Shown here: piece after piece, positions 7,553 to 57,106 of the stretch
How positions within the stretch are numbered: position 1 is the first letter of the stretch
Layout of the letters: each line of letters begins with the position of its first letter
Source: Escherichia coli
GTDB taxonomy: Bacteria; Pseudomonadota; Gammaproteobacteria; Enterobacterales; Enterobacteriaceae
NCBI RefSeq assembly: GCF_036507355.1
Contig: NZ_AP027877.1
DNA: 64,000 bases
Strand: one strand, 5' to 3'
Position numbers and translations under genes: made by a program
The notes under the pieces: generated by a model
Told to the model about the DNA's origin: nothing
Databases searched by the model: none
Seen by the model: the letters and a program-made list of their open reading frames with translations, nothing else

Positions 7553-7935
7553 ACGAGGACTCCTGCGAGAAGTGAAAGCACGACAGTAATAACAAAGGAG
7601 ATTTTGGCGGAGCGTTTACCCGCTTCGAATGTTTCTTCCAGATAGCCAAAATCCATCATCATGTGGCGAATACCTACGACGACGTGATACGCCAGAGCGG
7701 TAAGGATGCCCCACATGATAAATTTGACGAAGAAGCTGCCCATAATCGCGGAAGCTTGCTCGAAACCTTCAGGGGAAGAGAGGCTGGTACCCAGAAGCCA
7801 CAGCAGGATGCCCACTGCAACAAAGGTGATCACACCGGAAACGCGATGGAGAATGGACGCTATCGCCGTGATGGGGAACCGGATGGTCTGTAGGTCCAGA
7901 TTAACAGGTCTTTGTTTTTTCACATTTCTTATCAT
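7546..7935 (-). CDS. sdhC: Succinate dehydrogenase cytochrome b556 subunit
   Basis: Track ORF extends to 7950 ([10 protein letters not shown]...); start placed at [34 protein letters not shown], giving 129 aa. Confidence 0.92.
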
Positions 7936-8643
7936 GAATAACGCCCACATGCTGTTCTTATTATTCCCTGGGGACTACGGGCACAGAGGTTAACTTTCTG
8001 TTACCTGGAGACGTCGGGATTTCCTTCCTCCGGTCTGCTTGCGGGTCAGACAGCGTCCTTTCTATAACTGCGCGTCATGCAAAACACTGCTTCCAGATGC
8101 GAAAACGACACGTTACAACGCTGGGTGGCTCGGGATTGCAGGGTGTTCCGGAGACCTGGCGGCAGTATAGGCTGTTCACAAAATCATTACAATTAACCTA
8201 CATATAGTTTGTCGGGTTTTATCCTGAACAGTGATCCAGGTCACGATAACAACATTTATTTAATTTTTAATCATCTAATTTGACAATCATTCAACAAAGT
8301 TGTTACAAACATTACCAGGAAAAGCATATAATGCGTAAAAGTTATGAAGTCGGTATTTCACCTAAGATTAACTTATGTAACAGTGTGGAAGTATTGACCA
8401 ATTCATTCGGGACAGTTATTAGTGGTAGACAAGTTTAATAATTCGGATTGCTAAGTACTTGATTCGCCATTTATTCGTCATCAATGGATCCTTTACCTGC
8501 AAGCGCCCAGAGCTCTGTACCCAGGTTTTCCCCTCTTTCACAGAGTGGCGAGCCAAATAACAAACGGGTAAAGCCAGGTTGATGTGCGAAGGCAAATTTA
8601 AGTTCCGGCAGTCTTACGCAATAAGGCGCTAAGGAGACCTTAA
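7936..8643. promoter_or_regulatory. Divergent gltA / sdhCDAB promoter-regulatory region (about 700 bp, AT-rich)
   Basis: Long non-coding, AT-rich spacer between divergently oriented gltA (+) and sdhC (-). Established knowledge places multiple promoters and global-regulator sites here; individual sites were not mapped. Confidence 0.6.
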
Positions 8644-9927
8644 ATGGCTGATACAAAAGCAAAACTCACCCTCAACGGGGACACAGCTGTTGAACTGGAT
8701 GTGCTGAAAGGCACGCTGGGTCAAGATGTTATTGATATCCGTACTCTCGGTTCAAAAGGTGTGTTCACCTTTGACCCAGGCTTCACTTCAACCGCATCCT
8801 GCGAATCTAAAATTACTTTTATTGATGGTGATGAAGGTATTTTGCTGCACCGCGGTTTCCCGATCGATCAGCTGGCGACCGATTCTAACTACCTGGAAGT
8901 TTGTTACATCCTGCTGAATGGTGAAAAACCGACTCAGGAACAGTATGACGAATTTAAAACTACGGTGACCCGTCATACCATGATCCACGAGCAGATTACC
9001 CGTCTGTTCCACGCTTTCCGTCGCGACTCACATCCAATGGCAGTCATGTGTGGTATTACCGGCGCGCTGGCGGCGTTCTATCACGACTCGCTGGATGTTA
9101 ACAATCCTCGTCACCGTGAAATTGCCGCGTTCCGCCTGCTGTCGAAAATGCCGACCATGGCAGCGATGTGTTACAAGTATTCCATTGGTCAGCCATTTGT
9201 TTATCCGCGCAACGATCTCTCCTATGCCGGTAACTTCCTGAATATGATGTTCTCCACGCCGTGCGAACCGTATGAAGTTAATCCGATTCTGGAACGTGCT
9301 ATGGACCGTATTCTGATCCTGCACGCTGACCATGAACAGAACGCCTCTACCTCCACCGTGCGTACCGCTGGCTCTTCGGGTGCGAACCCGTTTGCCTGTA
9401 TCGCAGCAGGTATTGCTTCACTGTGGGGACCTGCGCACGGTGGTGCTAACGAAGCGGCGCTGAAAATGCTGGAAGAAATCAGCTCCGTTAAACACATTCC
9501 GGAATTTGTTCGTCGTGCGAAAGATAAAAATGATTCTTTCCGCCTGATGGGCTTCGGTCACCGCGTGTACAAAAATTACGACCCGCGCGCCACCGTAATG
9601 CGTGAAACCTGCCATGAAGTTCTGAAAGAGCTGGGCACCAAAGATGACCTGCTGGAAGTGGCTATGGAGCTGGAAAACATCGCGCTGAACGACCCGTACT
9701 TTATCGAGAAGAAACTGTACCCGAACGTCGATTTCTACTCTGGTATCATCCTGAAAGCGATGGGTATTCCGTCTTCCATGTTCACCGTCATTTTCGCAAT
9801 GGCACGTACCGTTGGCTGGATCGCCCACTGGAGCGAAATGCACAGTGACGGCATGAAGATCGCCCGTCCGCGCCAGTTGTACACCGGCTATGAAAAACGA
9901 GACTTTAAATCAGATGTTAAACATTAA
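8644..9927 (+). CDS. gltA: Citrate synthase
   Basis: 427-aa [50 protein letters not shown]...; full-length type II citrate synthase. Confidence 0.97.
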
Positions 9928-9954
9928 TTATCTGATTTGAACCATATATCGTTT

Positions 9955-9986
9955 AGCCCGCCTGAATATCTGGCGGGCTTTTTTTT
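9955..9986 (+). terminator. Rho-independent terminator downstream of gltA
   Basis: agcccgcc-tgaatatct-ggcgggct stem-loop followed by a T8 run, about 28 bp after the gltA stop. Confidence 0.75.
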
Positions 9987-10313
9987 GTTCGTTAGTTATG
10001 TCTATCGACAAAAAAACGTAATCGGACACAAATACATAATTACACGTTACAAGAATACATATCCGATAACTAAATAAAATCCTAATTTTTCATTCACCAC
10101 CACCGTTATCCCGCCAATCGATGTAGAATACATTGGGTAGCACCCACAATTAAATAAACTCGTAATAGGATTAATTCACTTTATTTATGATTCGAGAGCT
10201 TTGAGAAACTCTCAAACATAATGTAGCAACATTAATATTATTACATGAGCAAAAAACCACTATTCTGTCGGAATAATTAGTATACTTTATCATAGCCCAT
10301 GAAGGATTCATGT

Positions 10314-10880
10314 ATGTTTAAAGGACAAAAAACACTGGCCGCCCTGGCCATATCTCTACTATTCGCTTCACCTGTTTTTGCTGCAGATGAAGGATCTGGT
10401 GAAATCCACTTTAAAGGTGAAGTTATTGAAGCACCTTGTGAAATTCACCCTGATGACCTTGATATGAACATTGACCTGGGTGAAGTAACCACATCCCACA
10501 TAAATCGAGAACATCATAGCGAGAAAAAACCTGTCAATATTCGCTTAATCAACTGTGATATTGCAGACTGGGATGATGGCAACGGTGGCGTGGTCTCAAA
10601 GGTAGGCGTGACCTTCGACAGCACAGCTAAAACGACAGGTGCAACGCCGCTCCTTAGTAACATCAGTGCTGGCGAGGCTACCGGCGTTGGCGTACGTCTC
10701 ATGAACAAAGATGAATCATTTGTTGTATTGGGAACAGAAGCGCCAACAATTGACTTATTGGCAAGTTCAACAGAACAAACGTTAAACTTCTTTGCCTGGA
10801 TGGAACAGATGGATAACGCAGTTTCGGTTACCGCGGGGGCCGTTACTGCTAACGCAACTTACGTTCTGGATTACCAATAA
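10314..10880 (+). CDS. ybgD: Fimbrial subunit (type 1 / chaperone-usher family)
   Basis: Track ORF 10299..10880; start chosen at MFKGQKTLAALAISLLFASPVFA (signal peptide) giving 188 aa; C-terminal ...ANATYVLDYQ typical of fimbrial subunits. Confidence 0.85.
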   Translation: MFKGQKTLAALAISLLFASPVFAADEGSGEIHFKGEVIEAPCEIHPDDLDMNIDLGEVTTSHINREHHSEKKPVNIRLINCDIADWDDGNGGVVSKVGVTFDSTAKTTGATPLLSNISAGEATGVGVRLMNKDESFVVLGTEAPTIDLLASSTEQTLNFFAWMEQMDNAVSVTAGAVTANATYVLDYQ

Positions 10881-24109: not shown

Positions 24110-24339
24110 TACTGCTCCTGAGATATTAACAGGAGTAAGTGTAGACGTTGGGAAATGATTTTTGTGAAGTTAATCCGCTAGCAGGGCAAGATTACGAAAG
24201 CGCGCTCCCCGCAAGCAACTCATCAAGGTAGTTAATCATGGCTTAACACGATATTACGCCAGAAGTCACCATTTCCAAAACACAGCGCCGCTATAAAGTC
24301 GGCTATGTCAGAGCCCGCCACATAAACAGCAAAACCTAC

Positions 24340-24567
24340 ATGACCACGTACTACTCACGACACCCCTGCCTGAACCTTAAGGGCGACTGGCTGAAAGAGG
24401 CCGGATTTGATACCGGGCGGGGTGTCACGGTGAAGATTTCGGAGGGGTGCCTGACCATTATCGCTGACAGTGACGAGGTGCAGGAGCTGCGGGAGGAACT
24501 TTATCAGGTTAAACAGGTGGTTAAGGGGATACGGAGCGGGATGTTTAGTGTGCTGGACGAGAGTTAA
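24340..24567 (+). CDS. SymE-like small protein (SymE/AbrB-fold type I toxin family); possibly N-terminally truncated
   Basis: 75-aa ORF MTTYYSRHPCLNLKGDWLKEAGFDTGRGVTVKISEGCLTIIADSDEVQELREELYQ... resembles the SymE core (..[33 protein letters not shown]..). The in-frame upstream sequence still looks SymE-like but has no start codon before the stop at 24244. Confidence 0.6.
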   Translation: MTTYYSRHPCLNLKGDWLKEAGFDTGRGVTVKISEGCLTIIADSDEVQELREELYQVKQVVKGIRSGMFSVLDES

Positions 24568-24572
24568 ATAAT

Positions 24573-24612
24573 AAAAAAGCCGGGAAGATGTTATTTTCTT
24601 CCCGGCTTTTTT
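24573..24612. terminator. Bidirectional rho-independent terminator shared by the SymE-like gene (+) and the Rhs immunity gene (-)
   Basis: gccgggaag-(10 nt loop)-cttcccggc stem flanked by an A run on one side and a T run on the other. Confidence 0.75.
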
Positions 24613-24904
24613 AAAGTTTATTTATAGCTTGGTTAATTTCAAATAATAATGAGACAATATCTTTCGCAGAACCATTATAAATGGGGGTATCCCAATCAAA
24701 GTCCTTTATTAAACAAATATAAAAATTCCCATTTAAATTAAAAGATGGTCGCCACCCAACATCCAAAAGATACCCACCAGGATATTCAACTTGGAGCATA
24801 TCTTCCTTAAGTTCATCTCGCTGTTCATTAAGAGGGATGCTTTGTTTCAGGGAGAAGTCATTAAAAATTACATTCCCTTTTTTTCCTAAGAAATCAATGT
24901 TCAT
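24611..24904 (-). CDS. Putative Rhs immunity protein (cognate to the toxin tip immediately upstream)
   Basis: 97-aa AT-rich ORF MNIDFLGKKGNVIFNDFSLKQSIPLNEQRDELKEDMLQVEYPGGYLLDVGW...; its ATG overlaps the toxin stop (ATGA at 24901-24904). Position and composition are typical of rhsI genes; no family assignment was possible. Confidence 0.6.
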   Translation of the reverse strand: MNIDFLGKKGNVIFNDFSLKQSIPLNEQRDELKEDMLQVEYPGGYLLDVGWRPSFNLNGNFYICLIKDFDWDTPIYNGSAKDIVSLLFEINQAINKL

Positions 24905-26151
24905 GGTGTTGTTAGCCTTCGGAATTCATCAAGTGATATGGGATGTCCATGTATTGTCCCACCGCTAAGTTCAACTCGAACCCATTGAGATTCTTTACCC
25001 TCACTGGCCCCAATAACTTTCCCCATATCTTTTACTTTCCATGGTTTACCGTTGGTAACAGGTGTGCCTGTATTAAAAACATCGTATTCCAGCGTTTTAA
25101 TATCAATATCGGGAGAATATTTTGCCGGGCCTGATTTTGTTGATTTAATTATATCCTTCCATGATTTGTTTTTTGGAGGAAAATGTTTGTATCCATGATT
25201 TGTCCATTCAGGTTGCCCACACTTTAAACCTAACGGGTCGATCCACCCCAACGGATTCGGCGCGTATTGGTATAAATTTAATCCACCAAGCAGCCCTATC
25301 GGATCCGTTACCATGAACCGCCCGACATCCGGATCATAGTACCTGTGCAGATTGTAGTGCAGCCCCGTTTCCCTGTCGAGGTACTGTCCCTGGTAGCGCA
25401 GGTTCTGCTCCACCCTGCCGTGGTCCTTCTCCTGTATCGTGTTACCCCAGACCTGATACCCCGTCTCCCACACGATTCTCCCGTCGCTGTCCGTCATCTC
25501 TTCCGGCGCACCGTTCACATCCGTGTGAAAATACAGTATCCGGTTCGGGCCCTCTTTGCCTGCCTTATCCACCCGCGCCAGCGGTTCATAACTCCCCGGG
25601 TCCCTGTAGATGTACAGGCTGCCTGTTCCCTCCGGCCTGCTCTCCTGCGCCAGCCGCATTCCGTCCCATAAAAATTTTGTCCGGTTGTACGGTTTACCGT
25701 CAGGGCTGATGTGCTGTTTTTCCGTCCGCCTCCCCAGTGCATCGTACACATACCGGTATGCCCCCCGCGCTGTCGTCACTTCCACCATCCGGTGTTCCGC
25801 ATCATAACGGTAACTCTGCGTTCCGCTCCGGCCCTCCTTTTCCACCGCACGGCCAAATTCGTCATAACGGTAGTGCACACCACGGTAAGACATCAGCCGG
25901 TTGAACGGCACCACGCTGTTTTCTGCCGTGGCCCTTTCCCCCGCGCGCCTCCCCAGCAGGTTTCCCGCCGCGTCGTACTGCCAGCTCGCCAGATACCCCT
26001 CATCCTCCGAACGGCACGCCGTGATGCGCCCCGTGGGGTCGTAGAAGTAATCCGTTTCCCCCCGCCGGCTGTGCCGCGTCTTCAGCAGTTCATCCTCGCC
26101 ACTGTAGCTGTACTGCCGGTCCGTGAACGTCTCCGGTACCACCCCGCGCAT
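24901..26151 (-). CDS. Rhs protein, C-terminal part: end of YD-repeat core, PxxxxDPxGL motif and a 107-aa toxin tip. Same frame as the upstream fragment, separated from it by an in-frame TAG
   Basis: ORF contains YD repeats (YRYDEFGR, YRYDAEHR, YVYDALGRR) and the hallmark YYDPDVGRFMVTDPIGLLGGLNLYQYAPNPLGWIDPLGL, followed by a low-GC tip KCGQPEWTNHGYKHF...TIHGHPISLDEFRRLTTP. Frame arithmetic: the TAG at 26221-26223 is in frame with this ORF. Confidence 0.85.
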   Translation of the reverse strand: MRGVVPETFTDRQYSYSGEDELLKTRHSRRGETDYFYDPTGRITACRSEDEGYLASWQYDAAGNLLGRRAGERATAENSVVPFNRLMSYRGVHYRYDEFGRAVEKEGRSGTQSYRYDAEHRMVEVTTARGAYRYVYDALGRRTEKQHISPDGKPYNRTKFLWDGMRLAQESRPEGTGSLYIYRDPGSYEPLARVDKAGKEGPNRILYFHTDVNGAPEEMTDSDGRIVWETGYQVWGNTIQEKDHGRVEQNLRYQGQYLDRETGLHYNLHRYYDPDVGRFMVTDPIGLLGGLNLYQYAPNPLGWIDPLGLKCGQPEWTNHGYKHFPPKNKSWKDIIKSTKSGPAKYSPDIDIKTLEYDVFNTGTPVTNGKPWKVKDMGKVIGASEGKESQWVRVELSGGTIHGHPISLDEFRRLTTP

Positions 26152-26220: not shown

Positions 26221-28380
26221 CTAGCTTCTGAGCACCTCACGGTGCAGGTGGTCGCGCGTGAACTCGCTGATGACCTCCCGGTCCAGATTTATCTGCTGGA
26301 GATGGCCGCTGCCGTAGTACAGATGGCGCTGCGTTCTGCCGTCCGGAAAGGTGGTGGCAGTCCGGTTGCCCAGTTCATCGTACTGGTGGGTCAGGATGCC
26401 CTGCGCCGTCTCCTCGCTCAGCATCCGCCCCAGTCTGTCGTAGCTGAAGCAGATAACTTCCGGCGCGTCAGTTTCGTGCCGCTGGCGGCGGATTTCACCG
26501 CCCCGGTCCCCGGTGAACACCACTTCCGTGACCGCGTTCAGCGCGTTGTAGCGGTACGACTGGCGGCAGCCGTCCGGATTTATCTGCTCCGCCAGACGGT
26601 CCAGCACGTCATGGCGGAACCGGTAGCGTTCTCCGTTCTCGTTCGTGAGCGTGACCAGACGCCCGTAAGCGTCGTACCCGAACGCCGTCCTGCGCCCCAT
26701 CGCGTCCGTCCGGCTGCGCACCCGGCCCTGCCCGTCCCGCTGCCAGCGCGTTATCCTCCCCATCGGGCTGGTGTACTTCACCAGACTGCCCGCCGCGTCT
26801 GACTGGTAATTCACCGTGCGGCCGTCCGCCAGTATCACCTCCGTCAGATGACCGCTGTCGTCATACCCGTAGCGCGTGCTGTGGCTCTCCGCATCCGTCA
26901 TTCTGATAAGCCGCGTGCGTTCGTCGTAGAACCACGCCGTCTGCGAGCCGGAGCAGTCCGTGTGCCGCATGAGCTGCCCGTCTTCATTCCACTGGAGGTG
27001 TTTATTCCCCCCGCGCGCATCCGTTATCTGCACCACCTGGCCGTGGTGGTCATACTGATACCGGGTGTTCTGCTGCAGCGGGTCGGTCACGGCAAGAAGG
27101 TTGCCGCGTTCATCGTACACACAGCGCCAGGTGTTTCCCGCCGCGTCCACCTCCGTTTCCGGCTGGTGCCACACCGGGTGCCACTGTGTCTGCGCCACCC
27201 GCCCCAGCGGGTCGTGCGTCTCCGTGATATGCCCCTGCCGGTCATACACATAGCGCCATTTGCCGCCCTGAGGGTCGGTCATCCCCAGCAACAGTCGTTC
27301 TTCGTCGCTCCAGCGGAATGTCGTCACCTGTCCGGCTTCGTCCTGGTACGCCGTCACCTGATTCTGCGCATCCCACTGGTGATAACGTGTGCGCCCCAGT
27401 CCGTCCGTCACGCACAGCCTGCGCTGCGCCAGGTCCCACGCCAGCCGGTACTGTTCACCGCTGTCCGTGTGGTGCCCCGTCACCCGCCATGCCGCGTCAT
27501 CCGGACCGTCATACCAGCCCCACTGGTAATAATACCCTTCGCCGCCCGGCTGGCGGTGCAGCGTCATGCAGTGGTTTTCGTCGTAAGCAAACTCACGCAG
27601 CAGGTGCCCCGTGCTGTCGTACACGCCGTTCAGGTGGCCGGCCTCGTCATAGCTGTAACGACGCAGCAGTAAAGGTGCAGTCTCAGGGAAATGCTGATAA
27701 ATCTGTGTCACCCGCCGGGGATGCGCCGCCAGTTCGTAATACAGACGGATGCACGGACGCTGCTGTTCGCCGCTGATTTCCACAATGCGGCCCCGGTCGT
27801 CGTAGTACAGATTCAGACAGTTGCTGTTACGGTCGCCCAGCATTTTCAGCCGCTGGCGCTGCGGGTGGTGCGGGTCGCCTTCAAACAACCAGTGGATACC
27901 ATCATCGCTGCTGATAAGCCAGTGCCCCTGCTCACCACGCCTTACCGCCAGCCCTTCACCGGGGCTGTAAAACCCGCCCCCCGGCAGTACGGCTTCCATA
28001 TCCAGGCGTCGCCCCATACCCGACACAAAGGTCATGCAGTTTTCGTCTGCGCCACCCGGCAATACAAATGCCACCTGACACTGGTACACCTGCTCGTTAT
28101 CACGGAGAAACTGGCTCTGTATTTCCAGCCCTTGTTCACCGTCATTAATCCCTACCCGTGTTACCTGAACTGGCGTGTAGTGAAGATCCTTTACCTGTTT
28201 CTCCAGTTTTTTCATTTGCTGTTCAATCTGGGAGGCTAATTCGTCTCCTTCCTGCATCTGGCCCCGACTGATAATGAGTGCAGCGTCGGGATCGCTGAGG
28301 CGCAGCATATTAATAGTGCTGTCCTGAATAATATTCCCGGGAAAAGTTACAACAGTTTCATTGAGATAATACTCCGTCAT
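26221..28380 (-). CDS. Rhs protein, N-terminal part: DUF1795-like N-terminal domain plus YD-repeat core, ended by an in-frame amber codon (probable pseudogene or disrupted gene)
   Basis: 719-aa ORF. Core shows classic Rhs repeats (YQYDHHGQVV, YGYDDSGHLTEV, FGYDAYGRLV) and ends ...FTRDHLHREVLRS*, where intact Rhs proteins continue ...TRDRLHRETLRSFG.... Confidence 0.85.
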   Translation of the reverse strand: MTEYYLNETVVTFPGNIIQDSTINMLRLSDPDAALIISRGQMQEGDELASQIEQQMKKLEKQVKDLHYTPVQVTRVGINDGEQGLEIQSQFLRDNEQVYQCQVAFVLPGGADENCMTFVSGMGRRLDMEAVLPGGGFYSPGEGLAVRRGEQGHWLISSDDGIHWLFEGDPHHPQRQRLKMLGDRNSNCLNLYYDDRGRIVEISGEQQRPCIRLYYELAAHPRRVTQIYQHFPETAPLLLRRYSYDEAGHLNGVYDSTGHLLREFAYDENHCMTLHRQPGGEGYYYQWGWYDGPDDAAWRVTGHHTDSGEQYRLAWDLAQRRLCVTDGLGRTRYHQWDAQNQVTAYQDEAGQVTTFRWSDEERLLLGMTDPQGGKWRYVYDRQGHITETHDPLGRVAQTQWHPVWHQPETEVDAAGNTWRCVYDERGNLLAVTDPLQQNTRYQYDHHGQVVQITDARGGNKHLQWNEDGQLMRHTDCSGSQTAWFYDERTRLIRMTDAESHSTRYGYDDSGHLTEVILADGRTVNYQSDAAGSLVKYTSPMGRITRWQRDGQGRVRSRTDAMGRRTAFGYDAYGRLVTLTNENGERYRFRHDVLDRLAEQINPDGCRQSYRYNALNAVTEVVFTGDRGGEIRRQRHETDAPEVICFSYDRLGRMLSEETAQGILTHQYDELGNRTATTFPDGRTQRHLYYGSGHLQQINLDREVISEFTRDHLHREVLRS

Positions 28381-29163
28381 AATGATATGAGTCCTTTTTA
28401 ATTAATAAATTATTTAATGATGGTTTTTGTTTATTTTTAGTCATGAAAATGATACCCATCACTGCTTTACAGCACACTTTATCTTTCCAGCCATAATCAC
28501 TAATAATATTAAGCAATTACCAATATTTACACCGACCAGAGCGGATACATAGTTATGTATTTAACAATCCCAATATATTCACTATGCAAATAAAACCACT
28601 AGTAACAGACACGCTACCGCCTCCATATAAAAATGGACACCTTATAAAATTGTATCTTGCATAGAAAAAGCTGAAATATCGGATGCGTTTTAATTATCCA
28701 CTATAAGTCTATAAGCTTTTTATTAACAACAAAACATCTTATTGGATTAGATATGTTAACAATTAATTATTCTTAATATATCAATAAAGTATATATTACT
28801 CTCTTTACTATCTGCTTTTCTTGCGGTAGCGATACTAATAGCAAAATTCGGAATTTATTTAGATGCTGGAATTAGAAAAAGGGATGGCGGCCTTCTCACC
28901 TTACCCTGAAGTCTCAGGAAAGTGTGTAAGGAAGTATGCAACCTAACTGGAGATTTCTGATGATCTAGCCGCTTAGAGCGACAATGAAGGTGACCGCATC
29001 CTGGGTAGCCCTATGAAAGGATACTATTGAAACTTGATGCTAAAACAGTGATGAAATGAATAACACGATGGAAACGTCTTCCATGTTAATTATCATGGAA
29101 GACGTTGATGTAAAATACCTAAACCAGCCCCCTGATACGAGGCTGGCTTAAGCGCGCAGGCAA

Positions 29164-29370
29164 TCAATAAAAATCACCGGTTGCCTTTTCGGCCTGATCC
29201 ATCCAAACCGGTTTATCGCTGGTTTTCGACCAGACGCGATGCAGGTAGCTGTAAAAGCGGGCGCGGTCTTTCCAGAAAAGCATGAAAGGCAGCGCCAGAA
29301 CGCCCGCTGCAACCGCATAAGTACGGCGTAAAAAGATAAGCCATGCAGGATATTCTCTGTAGAGTTCCAT
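29164..29370 (-). CDS. ybfA: DUF2517-family small protein
   Basis: 68-aa [71 protein letters not shown]. Confidence 0.85.
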
Positions 29371-29579
29371 ACTTTTCTCCCCCTTTTGTATCTACCCGGT
29401 GAATAGCACCGGAAAAATGAATTTGTTTATCTGATGAAAATAGTACCGCTTTTTGTGTAATTTTACTACTCATCCGACCACTTATTTTTGCTTATTGATG
29501 GTTTATTTACATTCACCCTGTAATTAAGTTACACAAAAGTTAAATTAATACTAAACATTAGTTAAATCATGGCTTTTGC

Positions 29580-29682
29580 CATTTTTATACTTTTTTTACA
29601 CCCCGCCCGCAGATTTTTGCGAAATCTTTGCAGCCAGAATTCTACCCTTCCGGTATCACTTTTAGGCCACTGGAGGTGCACT
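29580..29682 (+). promoter_or_regulatory. kdpFABC promoter region with T-rich KdpE-binding sequence
   Basis: atttttatactttttttacaccccgcccg at 29581-29609 matches the KdpE operator as I recall it, lying just upstream of kdpF; exact -35/-10 not assigned. Confidence 0.5.
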
Positions 29683-37747: not shown

Positions 37748-38242
37748 TTAATGTGTATTTATCGCTTTCAACTCTTGCTGGCATTTTTCTGACTGGCAGC
37801 GTCGCAACTCAATAATCCCGACATGCATCATCGAGCCAATAAAGCCGCTTTCGCTGACATAATCCTCATTAACTATCGGTCGAGTGCCGGGCTTGCCCTG
37901 GCAAACCAGCATAAAAAATGAGGTGTAGCACTGCCAGCCGGGATTTAAACCGGCTTTTTCTTGTGCTGACATATCGTGAAGATAAATAAGTTCTTTTTCG
38001 TTCCCGCCTGACAACTGCCAGCGGCGGGTATTATCAGGTAAGTTATCGCTACAACAATTTGTCTTACACCGGGAAGGCGCAATATTTACCGCAATGCTAC
38101 CCTTTAACCCTCTGGTTTTATCTTTAGGGGTCAGTAACCAGTCGCCAGCTAATGATGATTGTTCAGGTTGGGCACATGCAGTCAGCAGTAGTGTGGCGGC
38201 AATGAATGTTACTCTTACGACCAGACTCCTTTTGGTCTTCAT
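37748..38242 (-). CDS. ybfP: Putative lipoprotein
   Basis: 164-aa ORF MKTKRSLVVRVTFIAATLLLTACAQPEQSS... with lipobox LLTAC; position next to pgm as in K-12. Confidence 0.75.
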   Translation of the reverse strand: MKTKRSLVVRVTFIAATLLLTACAQPEQSSLAGDWLLTPKDKTRGLKGSIAVNIAPSRCKTNCCSDNLPDNTRRWQLSGGNEKELIYLHDMSAQEKAGLNPGWQCYTSFFMLVCQGKPGTRPIVNEDYVSESGFIGSMMHVGIIELRRCQSEKCQQELKAINTH

Positions 38243-43876: not shown

Positions 43877-45283
43877 TCAGAAGATGGTGAATGGTGCGAT
43901 TACCATAAATTTCACGTCACGCTCATCCTGGAAGATGTTGCCGTAACCACCGCCCCAGCTTGGGATGTCGGAGTGGTTGTCGTATTCGGTGAAATGCAGT
44001 TTGAACATCGTGCCTTTGGCGCGGCCGTCCTGAATGGTGTAGACCGCATCCAGGCTGTATGCAGACTCTTCAATAGTCCGGTTTTTGTCGTAGTACGCAT
44101 CCGGATTGCTCTGCCAGGTCGCAGGTTTAGCATCCCATGCGTAAACGTAGGAAGCGCCGATGGCGAAGCCTGGAAGATTCCAGTTTTTCAGGTCATACAT
44201 CGCACCGAAGAAGACCGCTTTTTCGCCGTTGGCGTTGAAGTCAGAACGGTTATCCCACCAGATATCCAGGCGACCGTTCGAGGAAGCGTAGGTTGGAGTC
44301 ATACGTTGCAGGAAGTATCCCTGCTGACCGTCAGCTTTAACCCAGGTGCCTTCGAGGCGCAAATCCACTACGTCAGCCGCCCGGTAACCAAAGGTCAACG
44401 CTTGCAGCCAGGCGGTGCCGTCATAAAGATCGTTGACGCTGCGATCGTCAACTTTATCGCGCGTACCGTAGAACTGGTAGCTGGTGGTTAACGGGCTACC
44501 GGCGATATCAAATTTGTAGCTGGCTTTGGCAAAGTATTGATCGATATACCCTTCCGCCTGACCAAATGCCGCTTCCAGTACGAAGTTATTTTTGAAGTCG
44601 TATTTCGCACCGATGGAGTGCAGATAATCAACTTTGGTAGTTTTATCGTTCTGATAAAACTCATCCATTTCCAGATGCCACGGTGCTTTGTATTCGTTGG
44701 TCCACATGTAGGAGAAACTCAACGCACCGGCATCGCCGTAATCAAAATTCGCTCCGGCTTCCGCACCCTGATAGGTACCTGGCATAAAGCTCCAGTGCGG
44801 CGCTAACAGCGTCTGACCGGTTGGCTGAATATAACCTGCCCTCGCCCAAACCGGACCGTATTTAAATTTGGCCGCAGCTTTATACAGGCTTATACCGCTT
44901 TTGTCGCCGGACCAGTCTTCGTCATAGGCTTTATTACTTTTTGAAAACGCGATTTCGTTCGGGTGAGAGCTGTCGCCGTTTTCCGCCATTTCAATCGCCG
45001 TAAACGCAGCAATATCAAGGCCGAACATATCAGCAGCATAACCGGACTGAAAATCGAGGTTGGCATTCCAGGTGGAGTGAGAAAGGTTGGTTTTGTATTT
45101 GTCGCCGTCGGTAACATCTTTACGGTCGCGTTCACGCTGCCAGTAATATATACCGCCGGTTAAGGTTGAATCGTCGATGAATCCTTCGGCGCGAGCCTCC
45201 GGCATTGCCATAAAGCCCGACATTGCTGTAACACCGGCGATAGCCAGCGCCAGCGTACTACGTTTGCCACTAAACGTACGCAT
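43877..45283 (-). CDS. chiP: Chitoporin (OprD-family outer-membrane porin)
   Basis: 468-aa [56 protein letters not shown]... ending in aromatic C-terminal ...VIAPFTIF. Confidence 0.95.
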
Positions 45284-45684
45284 GGGTTAATCCTCTTTGA
45301 CGTATAAATTGCTGCACCAAAGGTGAACAGCGAAAAAAAATAAAAATTAAAAAAGTAGCGTTGAGAAAAGTCTCGCTGACTACAGGAACAGACTATTTTT
45401 CGCGACGCGAATTATCAATCTCTTTCTGTAACCAGAATGTAAGAACATGAGCAACCGCACATATTTTGATGATTTTTGTTACAAGGCTTAAGTTTGCGGT
45501 TGAAAGGCTTGCAGAAGAATAAAAGCGTGAATTTCCAGCAAGATGAAAGCGGTTACATTTTATTTAATTATGTTTTGTTATTTTAAATTTATTTTATGGA
45601 TAAATTGCGAAGCGGAATTAATTCGCGAAGAAAAGCAGAAAAAACGCCGCTGAACGCGGCGTTTTGGATTGTTTGCATATTTCT

Positions 45685-45850
45685 TGCCGGATGCGGCGTG
45701 AACGCCTTATCCGGCCTACAAAAGCACGCAAACTCAATATATTGCAGAGATCATGTAGGCCTGATAAGCGTAGCGCATCAGGCAATTTAGCGTTTGAAAC
45801 TGTTTGTCTGTTCCTTGCCGGATGTGGCGTAAATGCCTCACCCGGCCTGG
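45685..45850. repeat. REP/BIME cluster between glnS and the chiP upstream region
   Basis: ttgccggatgcggcgtgaacgccttatccggcctac, gtaggcctgataagcgtagcgcatcaggca and ttgccggatgtggcgtaaatgcctcacccggcct units. Confidence 0.6.
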
Positions 45851-45862
45851 TAGAACTTAAAA

Positions 45863-47527
45863 TTACTCGCCTACTTTCGCCCAGGTATCACGCAGCCCAA
45901 CGGTGCGGTTAAATACCGGTTTTTCCGCCGTGGAATGGCGACTGTCGAGGCAGAAGTAACCTTCACGCTCAAACTGGAATGCTTTACCCGCTACCGCATC
46001 TTTCAGCGACGGTTCAGCAAAGCCCTGTTTGATCACCAGCGATTCAGGGTTAATCACCGACAGGAAATCATCCGCAGCACCTGGGTTCGGCACGCTGAAC
46101 AGACGGTCATACAAACGGATTTCAACCGGCAGCGCATGTGCCGCGCTCACCCAGTGAATAACGCCTTTCACTTTACGACCATCAGCCGGATCTTTGCTTA
46201 AGGTGTCGGCGTCATAAGTACAGAAGATGGTGGTGATATTACCTTCGGCATCTTTCTCGACGCGTTCTGCCTTAATCACATAAGCATTACGCAGACGCAC
46301 TTCTTTACCGAGCACCAGACGTTTGTACTGCTTGTTAGCTTCTTCGCGGAAATCGGCGCGATCGATCCAAATCTCACCGCTAAACGGCACCTGACGGCTC
46401 CCCATTTCCGGTTTGTTCGGATGGTTCGGCATGGTAACCATTTCGCCTTCGCCCTGATAGTTTTCGATAACCAGTTTCACCGGATCGATAACCGCCATTG
46501 CGCGCGGGGCGTTTTCGTTGAGATCTTCACGGATGCAGGATTCCAGCGACGCCATCTCAATGGTGTTGTCCTGCTTGGTCACGCCGATGCGTTTGCAGAA
46601 CTCACGAATAGAAGCCGCAGTGTAACCACGACGACGCAGACCGGAAATGGTCGGCATACGCGGGTCATCCCAGCCTTCAACGTGCTTATCGGTCACCAGC
46701 AGGTTCAGCTTACGCTTGGACATCACAGTGTATTCCAGATTCAGGCGCGAGAATTCGTATTGGCGCGGGTGAACAGGAATGGTGATGTTGTCCAGTACCC
46801 AGTCGTACAGACGACGGTTATCCTGGAACTCAAGCGTACACAGAGAGTGCGTAATACCTTCCAGGGCATCGCTGATGCAGTGGGTGAAGTCGTACATCGG
46901 GTAGATGCACCACTTGTTGCCAGTCTGGTGGTGTTCAGCAAATTTAATGCGGTACAGCACCGGATCGCGCATCACGATAAACGGTGAAGCCATGTCGATT
47001 TTCGCACGCAGGCAGGCTTTACCTTCTTCAAAACCGCCGGTACGCATTTTCTCGAACAGCGCCAGGTTCTCTTCAACGCTACGGTCGCGGTACGGGCTGT
47101 TTTTACCCGGCTGCGTCAGGGTGCCGCGGTATTCGCGGATCTGTTCCGGCGTCAGTTCATCAACGTACGCCAGGCCTTTATTGATCAGTTCGATCGCATA
47201 GGCGTGGAGCTGATCAAAATAATCGGAGGAGTAACGGACGTTACCAGACCAGTGAAAACCTAACCACTCTACGTCGTTTTTGATCGAATCGACATACTCG
47301 ATATCTTCTTTTACCGGGTTAGTGTCGTCGAAACGCAGGTTGCACTGGCCTTTATAGTCCTGGGCGATCCCGAAGTTCAGGCAGATAGATTTCGCATGGC
47401 CAATATGCAGATAGCCATTCGGCTCCGGCGGGAAACGGGTGTGTACTGTGGTGTGCTTACCACTGGCCAGATCTTCATCGATGATCTGACGGATAAAGTT
47501 AGTCGGGCGGGCTTCTGCCTCACTCAT
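45863..47527 (-). CDS. glnS: Glutaminyl-tRNA synthetase
   Basis: 554-aa [51 protein letters not shown]... with HIGH and VMSKR class I motifs. Confidence 0.97.
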
Positions 47528-49732: not shown

Positions 49733-50064
49733 CTTATTCCCCCTACGAGAACCCTATTTGGCTCGTTTAAAGCCGTATTTTTATTGTGCTGCAAATTGTA
49801 CTGCCGATGTTCTGTAATCAGATTGTTAGATCATCTGCCACAGAGTGTGTGAAAATTTAATTCGTATCGCAAATTAAACGCGTGTCTTTTGTGAGTTTTG
49901 TCACCAAATATCGTTATCATCACTCCCTTTTACTGGCTAAATCAGAAAACTTATTTTATCATTCAAAAAATCAGGTCGGATTGACGCCTGTCTGCGCAAA
50001 TCCAAGTTACGCTTAAAGATGCCTAATCCGCCAACGGCTTACATTTTACTTATTGAGGTGAATA
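49733..50064. promoter_or_regulatory. Divergent nagE / nagBACD promoter-operator region
   Basis: Non-coding spacer between divergent nagE (-) and nagB (+). Established knowledge places NagC operators and a CRP site here; not mapped base-by-base. Confidence 0.6.
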
Positions 50065-56402: not shown

Positions 56403-56479
56403 GGCTACGTAGCTCAGTTGGTTAGAGCACATCACTCATAATGATGGGGTCACAGGTTCGAATCCCGTCGTAGCCACCA
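56403..56479 (+). tRNA. metT: tRNA-Met (elongator, anticodon CAU)
   Basis: ggctacgtagctcagttggttagagcacatcactcataatgatggggtcacaggttcgaatcccgtcgtagccacca; cloverleaf with CAT anticodon and encoded CCA. Confidence 0.95.
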
Positions 56480-56487
56480 TCTTTTTT

Positions 56488-56572
56488 GCGGGAGTGGCGA
56501 AATTGGTAGACGCACCAGATTTAGGTTCTGGCGCCGCAAGGTGTGCGAGTTCAAGTCTCGCCTCCCGCACCA
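56488..56572 (+). tRNA. leuW: tRNA-Leu (anticodon UAG, long variable arm)
   Basis: gcgggagtggcgaaattggtagacgcaccagatttaggttctggcgccgcaaggtgtgcgagttcaagtctcgcctcccgcacca. Confidence 0.93.
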
Positions 56573-56595
56573 TTCACCAGAAAGCGTTGTACGGA

Positions 56596-56670
56596 TGGGG
56601 TATCGCCAAGCGGTAAGGCACCGGTTTTTGATACCGGCATTCCCTGGTTCGAATCCAGGTACCCCAGCCA
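56596..56670 (+). tRNA. glnU: tRNA-Gln (anticodon UUG)
   Basis: tggggtatcgccaagcggtaaggcaccggtttttgataccggcattccctggttcgaatccaggtaccccagcca; anticodon loop ttTTGat. Confidence 0.93.
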
Positions 56671-56704
56671 TCTTCTTCGAGTAAGCGGTTCACCGCCCGG
56701 TTAT

Positions 56705-56779
56705 TGGGGTATCGCCAAGCGGTAAGGCACCGGTTTTTGATACCGGCATTCCCTGGTTCGAATCCAGGTACCCCAGCCA
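56705..56779 (+). tRNA. glnW: tRNA-Gln (anticodon UUG), second copy
   Basis: Identical to the preceding tRNA-Gln(UUG) sequence. Confidence 0.93.
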
Positions 56780-56794
56780 TCGAAGAAACAATCT

Positions 56795-56871
56795 GGCTAC
56801 GTAGCTCAGTTGGTTAGAGCACATCACTCATAATGATGGGGTCACAGGTTCGAATCCCGTCGTAGCCACCA
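56795..56871 (+). tRNA. metU: tRNA-Met (elongator), second copy
   Basis: Identical to the metT sequence. Confidence 0.93.
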
Positions 56872-56919
56872 AATTCTGAATGTGTCGAATATGTTCGGCA
56901 AATTCAAAAACCAATTTGT

Positions 56920-56994
56920 TGGGGTATCGCCAAGCGGTAAGGCACCGGATTCTGATTCCGGCATTCCGAGGTTCGAATCCTCGTACCCCAGCCA
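56920..56994 (+). tRNA. glnV: tRNA-Gln (anticodon CUG; wild-type, not the supE amber-suppressor allele)
   Basis: tggggtatcgccaagcggtaaggcaccggattctgattccggcattccgaggttcgaatcctcgtaccccagcca; anticodon loop ttCTGat. Confidence 0.93.
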
Positions 56995-57031
56995 ATTTAT
57001 TCAAGACGCTTACCTTGTAAGTGCACCCAGT

Positions 57032-57106
57032 TGGGGTATCGCCAAGCGGTAAGGCACCGGATTCTGATTCCGGCATTCCGAGGTTCGAATCCTCGTACCC
57101 CAGCCA
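57032..57106 (+). tRNA. glnX: tRNA-Gln (anticodon CUG), second copy
   Basis: Identical to the glnV sequence. Confidence 0.93.

Follow-up and report, generated by a model that had tools for sequence, protein, structure and literature searches.

Escherichia coli carries a long AT-rich stretch in front of the chitoporin gene chiP, and the question that it raises is how much of this stretch is transcribed as leader RNA and how much acts as promoter and operator DNA. An earlier note on this DNA had treated the whole of it, about 300 bp, as the chiP leader, and had named the small RNA ChiX and the repressor NagC as its regulators without mentioning that chiP lies on the minus strand, that the leader is annotated as an sRNA (the ChiZ sponge), that GalR binds here, or that a CRP site is probable. 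Here we report an analysis of positions 45284-45600 in a 64,000-nucleotide stretch of DNA, called the window throughout, together with a comparison of 80 Enterobacteriaceae chiP loci, for which motif counts are given over 79 or 80 loci and an alignment covers 26 genera.

The window is a piece of the E. coli chromosome that runs antiparallel to the K-12 coordinates, as established by spacer matches, annotated genes, and gene order. A 701-bp query crossing the spacer matched over at least 80% of its length in 5303 complete E. coli genomes, a strain with 99.9% identity has both neighbouring genes annotated in RefSeq, one as chitoporin ChiP and the other as glutamine--tRNA ligase, and the order in that strain is nagE-glnS-chiP-chiQ-fur. 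The segment itself is single-copy and, of 5426 complete E. coli genomes, 5417 have it at a minimum of 90% identity; RefSeq-style annotations of the strain studied here list no feature at 45284-45600. The boundaries of the spacer are set by the following features.

43877-45283, minus strand: chiP, an open reading frame of 468 aa with its ATG at 45283
45641-45665, minus strand: intrinsic terminator hairpin of glnS, AAAACGCCGCGTTCAGCGGCGTTTT followed by a T-run, found by a terminator scan and kept across genera in the alignment
45863-47527, minus strand: glnS, an open reading frame of 554 aa

The complete glnS-chiP spacer measures 579 bp. Its AT-rich part extends from chiP to about 45640, where the glnS terminator hairpin forms the upstream edge. 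The GC content of 45284-45600 is 33.8%, versus 52.4% in the whole window and 51-53% in the flanking genes, and equally AT-rich 317-bp intervals make up 1.2% of those across the 64 kb, confined to a handful of other segments. Open reading frames that overlap 45284-45600 are mechanical only, 26-64 aa long, mostly on the opposite strand and mostly with TTG or GTG starts. An AT-rich stretch of some 300 bp without a credible gene thus does precede chiP in gene orientation, as had been noted; such a regulatory spacer is normal for E. coli, and the observation is real and not unusual. Segments at least as AT-rich lie at 28265-28993, 9874-10364, 8154-8507, 24551-24939, and 29328-29645, and the GC minimum of the window, 27%, is found near 28493.

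An Rfam scan of 45284-45600 returned no family at or above its gathering score and only weak REP-type matches located upstream of 45607. REP/BIME-type palindromic repeats occupy approximately 45690-45850, in the part of the spacer that runs from the glnS terminator to the stop codon of glnS. They give weak Rfam naRNA4 and ES036 matches, BLAST places them at as many as 40 or more positions per genome, and most of the strain-to-strain variation in the spacer is due to them. Elsewhere in the window, the Hfq-binding RNA isrA is matched with 113 bits at 24309-24437 on the minus strand, and a cluster of seven tRNA genes lies at 56403-57103 on the plus strand.

Transcription start and extent of the chiP leader

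In the K-12 RefSeq record, the non-coding RNA chiZ (b4808) spans 708236-708333 and abuts the start of chiP at 708334. Adams et al. (2021; PMC7815308) described an RNA of about 90 nt from the chiP 5' UTR with a Term-seq 3' end at 708334, which is the A of the chiP ATG, and their constructs, based on dRNA-seq, start with GTAGTCAGCGAG or TAGTCAGCGAG. Both the chiZ annotation and these constructs place the transcription start site in K-12 at 98 nt upstream of the ATG. Between about 45665 and the start codon of chiP, only one A/T SNP and a U-run of 8 instead of 6 set the window apart from K-12. Because of this near-identity and the annotated chiZ start, the K-12 mapping can be carried over, which would put the start site at G45383 and give a 5' UTR of 100 nt.

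45284-45383, minus strand: chiP 5' UTR, equivalent to the ChiZ sRNA, 100 nt (98 nt in K-12), from chiZ b4808 orthology and the primers and Term-seq row of PMC7815308

Alignment with the characterised leader bears this out, since the 100 nt are those of K-12 708236-708333 with the U-tract lengthened by two T. With the start site only 100 nt from the ATG, the earlier description of the entire 300 bp as leader holds for one-third of it, and the remaining two-thirds (45384-45600) are, on the carried-over start site, untranscribed promoter and operator DNA. For the same reason, together with the lack of an Rfam match at gathering score, the region does not belong among long (300 nt or more) structured leaders, riboswitches, or other curated families of cis-regulatory RNA.

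A longer transcript, either initiated at a promoter close to 45590 or reading through from glnS, would allow the upstream part to act as RNA after all. A promoter-like TTAAAA-18-TAAAAT does occur on the chiP strand at 45586-45557, and minor bands of about 200-500 nt were seen with a chiP probe, although Adams et al. (PMC7815308) interpreted them as degradation or read-through. The promoter-like match is at chance level (one found versus 1.3 expected in shuffled sequences), the annotated chiZ start and the dRNA-seq-based constructs both point to a start at -98 in K-12 or -100 in this strain, and a strong glnS terminator (45665-45641) stands in the way of read-through. Moreover, the conserved blocks upstream of 45383 are palindromic motifs of the kind bound by proteins (NagC, CRP-like, and GalR) at fixed distances from the promoter, and the sequence between them is not conserved. 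We therefore consider a leader of the full length improbable.

Promoter and operators upstream of the leader

The short leader leaves more than 200 bp in which the following DNA elements were recognised; positions in brackets are relative to G45383.

45390-45395, minus strand: putative -10 hexamer TAGTCT (-12 to -7), assigned by position relative to the start site
45413-45418, minus strand: putative -35 hexamer TTGATA (-35 to -30), assigned by position relative to the start site and invariant across genera
45394-45416, minus strand: proximal NagC operator GATAATTCGCGTCGCGAAAAATA (-33 to -11), an exact match to a published 23-bp site
45446-45461, minus strand: CRP-like site TGTGCGGTTGCTCATG of the TGTGA-N6-TCACA type (centre -70.5), from conservation and position
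45476-45484, minus strand: palindromic box TTGTAACAA, TTGTWACAA across genera (centre -97), from conservation
45543-45557, minus strand: GalR operator TGTAACCGCTTTCAT, 14-bp core with its centre at -167.5, the reverse complement of the published ATGAAAGCGGTTACA
45599-45639, minus strand: distal NagC-like box of two overlapping 23-mers, a predicted second operator, from a position weight matrix (PWM) and conservation

The two hexamers are separated by a spacer of 17 bp. TAGTCT agrees with TATAAT at three of six positions and would make a weak -10 element, which fits dependence of the promoter on an activator; a generic promoter scan did not call the TTGATA/TAGTCT pair and gave only the chance-level match TTAAAA-18-TAAAAT. 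The proximal NagC operator covers the spacer and, given the inferred hexamers, overlaps both of them. It is identical, letter for letter, to the 'ybfM proximal' NagC site in Table 1 of PMC3098098, and repression of the chiP promoter by NagC in vivo has been reported (PMC4098024; bioRxiv 10.64898/2026.05.02.722398, a 2026 preprint). With a PWM built from nine other published NagC sites, none of them from chiP, the operator scores 22.2 bits and ranks second in the 64 kb, behind the nagE operator and ahead of that of nagB. The promoter/NagC block is nearly invariant in all 79 loci counted. The earlier statement that this promoter is NagC-controlled is thus supported by a published 23-bp operator, present exactly and lying across the core promoter. 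Both the nagE and the nagB operators are also found exactly as published, at 49856-49878 and 49950-49972 in the divergent nagE-nagB spacer, and the next-best PWM matches in the window lie at 37968-37990 (15.0 bits) and 7921-7943 (14.7 bits).

The label 'ybfM proximal' in PMC3098098 implies that a distal NagC site exists as well. About 70 of 79 loci have, just downstream of the glnS terminator, a NagC-like box ending in GCGAATTAAT, with scores as high as 22.5 bits in other genera. Its homologue in the window is TCTGCTTTTCTTCGCGAATTAAT (45639-45617, centre -245) with 9.4 bits, and an overlapping alternative, TTAATTCCGCTTCGCAATTTATC (45621-45599, centre -227), scores 11.7 bits, so that in E. coli the box reaches 9-12 bits, no better than the nearby AT-rich background. 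The best alternative NagC match inside the interval, at 45569-45591 with 12.6 bits, was rejected as belonging to that background and not conserved. Across genera, the distances between the distal and proximal centres cluster at about 192, 201, 212, 223, 235, and 245 bp, with a period close to 10.7 bp (R=0.46, p~0.006 when each distance is counted once, a statistic that ignores phylogenetic non-independence). This suggests helical phasing, and hence that NagC may loop the DNA from the distal box; we hold looping as inferred because the phasing test takes no account of shared ancestry.

This arrangement would resemble that of the NagC-repressed promoters with paired operators (nagE-nagB, chbB, glmU, and galP), in that a high-scoring 23-bp NagC operator lies over the core promoter and a weaker NagC-like box lies upstream of it at an apparently helically phased distance. 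At chiP the predicted loop measures about 223 bp, within a range of about 192-245 bp for the genera compared, and its distal box is weak in E. coli, whereas the loop between the nagE and nagB operators is roughly 90-100 bp.

GalR occupancy has experimental support in K-12. Table 3 of PMC5110547 gives ATGAAAGCGGTTACA as the site inferred for a GalR ChIP-chip peak at K-12 708069 (chiP), which ChIP-qPCR validated, and counts it among the known operators; the peak maps onto 45557-45543 of the window. Independently of this, about 50 of 79 loci show a footprint of the LacI-family type, TGTAACCGCTTTCA, at -164 to -169. The chiP box fits the 16-bp consensus GTGNAANCGNTTNCAC of the gal regulon operators (galE OE/OI, galP, mglB, galS, galR), and the mglB site TTGAAAGCGGTTACA is one position away from it in the table of PMC5110547. 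In contrast to the gal operators, it has a remote upstream position (-167.5) at a promoter with no relation to galactose, and its ChIP signal is 4.9 versus 78-115 for galE and galP (PMC5110547). The core is intact in the window and in K-12. In the E. coli lineage L005 (at about 1230-1245, the counterpart of 45544-45557; TGTAATTGCGTTCA, with the central CG lost) and in E. albertii (L006) it is disrupted, and GalR control is therefore not universal.

The remaining two boxes were recognised mainly by their conservation. The half-sites of the CRP-like element match the consensus at 4/5 and 3/5 positions in E. coli; TATGTGC and TCAT (TATGTGC-N6-TCAT) are invariant in the 26 genera, and all 79 loci counted have TGTG-N7-TCA at one and the same offset. 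Its centre at -70.5 is a class-I-like position (reference positions being near -61.5, -71.5, and -82.5), and ybfM appears, as a gene listing, among the genomic-SELEX targets of CRP (PMC3105977). Between this element and the GalR operator, the palindrome at -97 has the GalR half-site TGTAAC within it. Two of its bases, G219 and C223, do not vary in the 26 genera, the adjoining bases are at least 90% conserved, and an exact TTGTWACA or TGTWACAA stands at -100 or -101 in 41 of 79 loci. We found no literature on a TTGTWACAA box at chiP. The palindrome could be an auxiliary half-site for GalR, or the site of another factor that bridges to the upstream operators.

Since 33.8% GC falls in the lowest 1.2% of intervals of the same size, the stretch could also be read as mainly a silencing patch of the H-NS type, or as a horizontally acquired remnant, in place of a set of specific operators. 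This is very improbable: the glnS-chiP arrangement and its upstream region are present in 80 Enterobacteriaceae species genomes, motifs fixed in position amid freely diverging sequence are the signature of specific sites, and three of the motifs match experimentally supported ones. H-NS binding could nevertheless coexist with the specific operators. Least probable of all is a hidden small protein or independent sRNA gene upstream of the promoter, for which one could cite mechanical open reading frames of 26-36 aa at 45380-45460 (minus), 45476-45586 (plus), and 45543-45653 (plus), but these overlap the conserved DNA operators, have mostly TTG or GTG starts and are mostly antisense to the flanking genes, the underlying sequence is not conserved as coding across genera, and the interval has no Rfam family match and no RefSeq annotation other than chiZ.

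ChiX pairing and the architecture of the leader RNA

Within the leader, four RNA elements can be placed in 5' to 3' order.

45355-45383, minus strand: 5' terminal hairpin (GUAGU...GCUAC), from minimum-free-energy folds
45333-45354, minus strand: U/A-rich tract UUUUUUAAUUUUUAUUUUUUUU of 22 nt, single-stranded in the folds, a probable Hfq (rim) site
45311-45331, minus strand: second hairpin (GCUG UU CACC UUU GGUG CAGC), from folds, just 5' of the ChiX box
45291-45302, minus strand: ChiX pairing box CGUCAAAGAGGA, forming 12 contiguous Watson-Crick pairs with ChiX nt 45-56, UCCUCUUUGACG

The ChiX query is an 84-nt sequence from between ybaK and ybaP, present in 5422 of 5426 complete E. coli genomes and scoring 82 bits against Rfam sroB; the chiX gene is absent from the 64-kb window. 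Within the pairing box lies the Shine-Dalgarno sequence GAGGA (45295-45291), with a gap of 7 nt between it and the AUG (45283-45281). Any other 12-mer in the 64 kb that is complementary to ChiX is of low complexity (an A- or U-run). In an accessibility-corrected short-window scan, the hybrid has an energy of -21.0 kcal/mol, or -15.7 kcal/mol after opening costs, and no favourable site besides 45302-45291 was returned. An energy-based test gave z=-6.6 for the duplex, with none of 1000 composition-preserving shuffles as good. This test is the one we trust, a shuffle test on the longest exact match being contaminated by A-run and U-run matches (54 of 5000 shuffles reached 12 or more). An RNAduplex run of full-length ChiX against 517 nt produced -45.5 kcal/mol with giant loops, was equalled by 23 of 500 shuffles, and was discarded as meaningless in favour of the short-window scan. 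The earlier note had named the chiP 5' UTR as a ChiX target and a lack of complementarity as the result that would speak against it; what is found is a perfect 12-nt complement to the ChiX seed over the Shine-Dalgarno sequence.

The consequences of this pairing are known from the literature: ChiX represses chiP (PMC4098024), its pairing unmasks a Rho-dependent terminator within chiP (PMC12360218, Table 2), and an additional 3' end has been mapped inside the gene at K-12 708624, about 44993 of the window (supplementary tables of PMC7815308). ChiZ, in turn, sponges ChiX (PMC7815308). In the comparison of loci, CAAAGAGGA lies 15-17 nt before the ATG (mostly at -16) in 74 of 80, all except five Kosakonia-type loci and one Leclercia MAG. 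The promoter, the operators, and the ChiX box are conserved in about 79 Enterobacteriaceae species genomes.

The architecture 5' of the ChiX box appears to be shared in form more than in sequence. The order hairpin, U-tract, hairpin, box recurs across genera with different stem sequences. For the 5' hairpin, the stems in other genera include GGUAGUUA/ACUACC, GUGGU/ACCAC, and CACCGG/CCGGU, and most genera have a GC-rich counterpart of the second hairpin, often followed by a U-run. These likenesses come from individual folds; when 26 leaders were aligned with MAFFT and given to RNAalifold, no pairs were predicted and hence no consensus structure, the 5' hairpin included. The U/A-rich tract at 45354-45333 is the probable site of Hfq (rim) binding, and fits the Hfq CLIP-seq peak of the Salmonella chiP 5' UTR, which has crosslink mutations in UA-rich sequence and for which rim binding (Schu 2015) is cited (PMC5207318).

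Combined control of chiPQ and its variation among lineages

Taken together, positions 45284-45600 very probably form the complete cis-regulatory region of the chiPQ operon, acting at both the DNA level, from 45384 to about 45640, and the RNA level, from 45383 to 45284. In the proposed mechanism, a sigma-70 promoter with a good -35 and a weak -10 element would start transcription at G45383. NagC bound to the proximal operator would exclude RNA polymerase until GlcNAc-6-P derived from chitosugars releases it, and the distal NagC-like box about 223 bp upstream would probably stabilise repression through a DNA loop. The CRP-like site at -70.5 would probably provide class-I activation and thereby catabolite control, and GalR would occupy its operator at -167.5. 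On the RNA, constitutive ChiX, encoded about 200 kb away between ybaK and ybaP, would, together with Hfq, pair with the leader box over 12 bp that cover the Shine-Dalgarno sequence, blocking translation and so exposing the Rho-dependent terminator in chiP, by which chiQ would be silenced too. The same leader would accumulate as the sRNA ChiZ of about 90 nt and titrate ChiX in return.

For NagC repression, GalR occupancy, the action of ChiX, Hfq, and Rho, and sponging by ChiZ, this mechanism draws on the literature; our analysis supplies the sequence identities, positions, pairing energetics, and conservation, and nothing in it contradicts the overall picture. Every major element has already been described for chiP of E. 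coli or Salmonella, and the locus in the window is the reference locus itself and no new variant: the chiP (ybfM) 5' UTR of K-12 and Salmonella, the target of ChiX (also MicM, SroB, or RybC) and source of ChiZ b4808, belongs to the same glnS-chiP locus. The K-12 leader shares with the window the start site and the 12-nt ChiX box over the Shine-Dalgarno sequence, and differs in having a T6 U-tract and 98 nt, against T8 and 100 nt here. Sponges derived from 5' UTRs (ChiZ, IspZ) and Rho-dependent polarity triggered by an sRNA (chiPQ, galKM) both have the chiP locus as their founding example, and no difference was seen between the locus in the window and the ChiZ and chiPQ systems. The chiP leader is thus a textbook case of sRNA silencing relieved by a decoy mRNA and of sRNA-induced Rho polarity, and it also exemplifies the class II sRNA/Hfq rim-binding targets and the sponges derived from 5' UTRs. 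The practical gain is a base-resolution map for this strain, with a corrected leader length and the blocks that are conserved across about 79 species.

The leader varies in several respects among the lineages compared. The final U-run of the U/A-rich tract (45340-45333) is T8 in the window, T6 in K-12 MG1655, and T7 in E. coli SCPM-O-B-8794 (L005). We put forward as a tentative and rather unlikely proposal that the palindrome at -97 is an operator for a regulator new to chiP and, separately, that the T6/T7/T8 length tunes repression by ChiX and Hfq between lineages.

The five Kosakonia-type loci (L048, L049, L057, L058, and L066) carry the box CGUCCAGAAGGA or CGUCUAGAAGGA 19 nt before the ATG, which against the E. 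coli ChiX gives two mismatches and one G-U pair. A ChiX seed reading UCCUUCUGGACG in Kosakonia would be a case of compensatory change in nature, matched to the chiP box there; if the seed had stayed as it is in E. coli, regulation would be weakened. A search of metagenome contigs for the compensated seed ATTCCTTCTGGACNGGCC returned 64 stretches, none of them in a ChiX-like context.

The second hairpin is weaker in E. coli than in many other genera. In L007, L039, L053, and other loci, a GC-rich version runs straight into UUUUU(A), as in CGCCG...CGGCGUUUUUAAAAGUC, an arrangement reminiscent of an intrinsic terminator or of a module for Hfq binding immediately 5' of the ChiX box. In six loci of the Citrobacter freundii-complex type (L013, L020, L021, L022, L024, and L026), a structured insert of about 120 nt sits between the second hairpin and the ChiX box (for example at L020:1352-1482) and lengthens the 5' UTR to 218-224 nt. 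The insert matches a dispersed, unannotated repeat of about 125 bp, of which E. coli genomes have a median of 6 copies at 60-84% identity, and it resembles the ERIC/IRU consensus.
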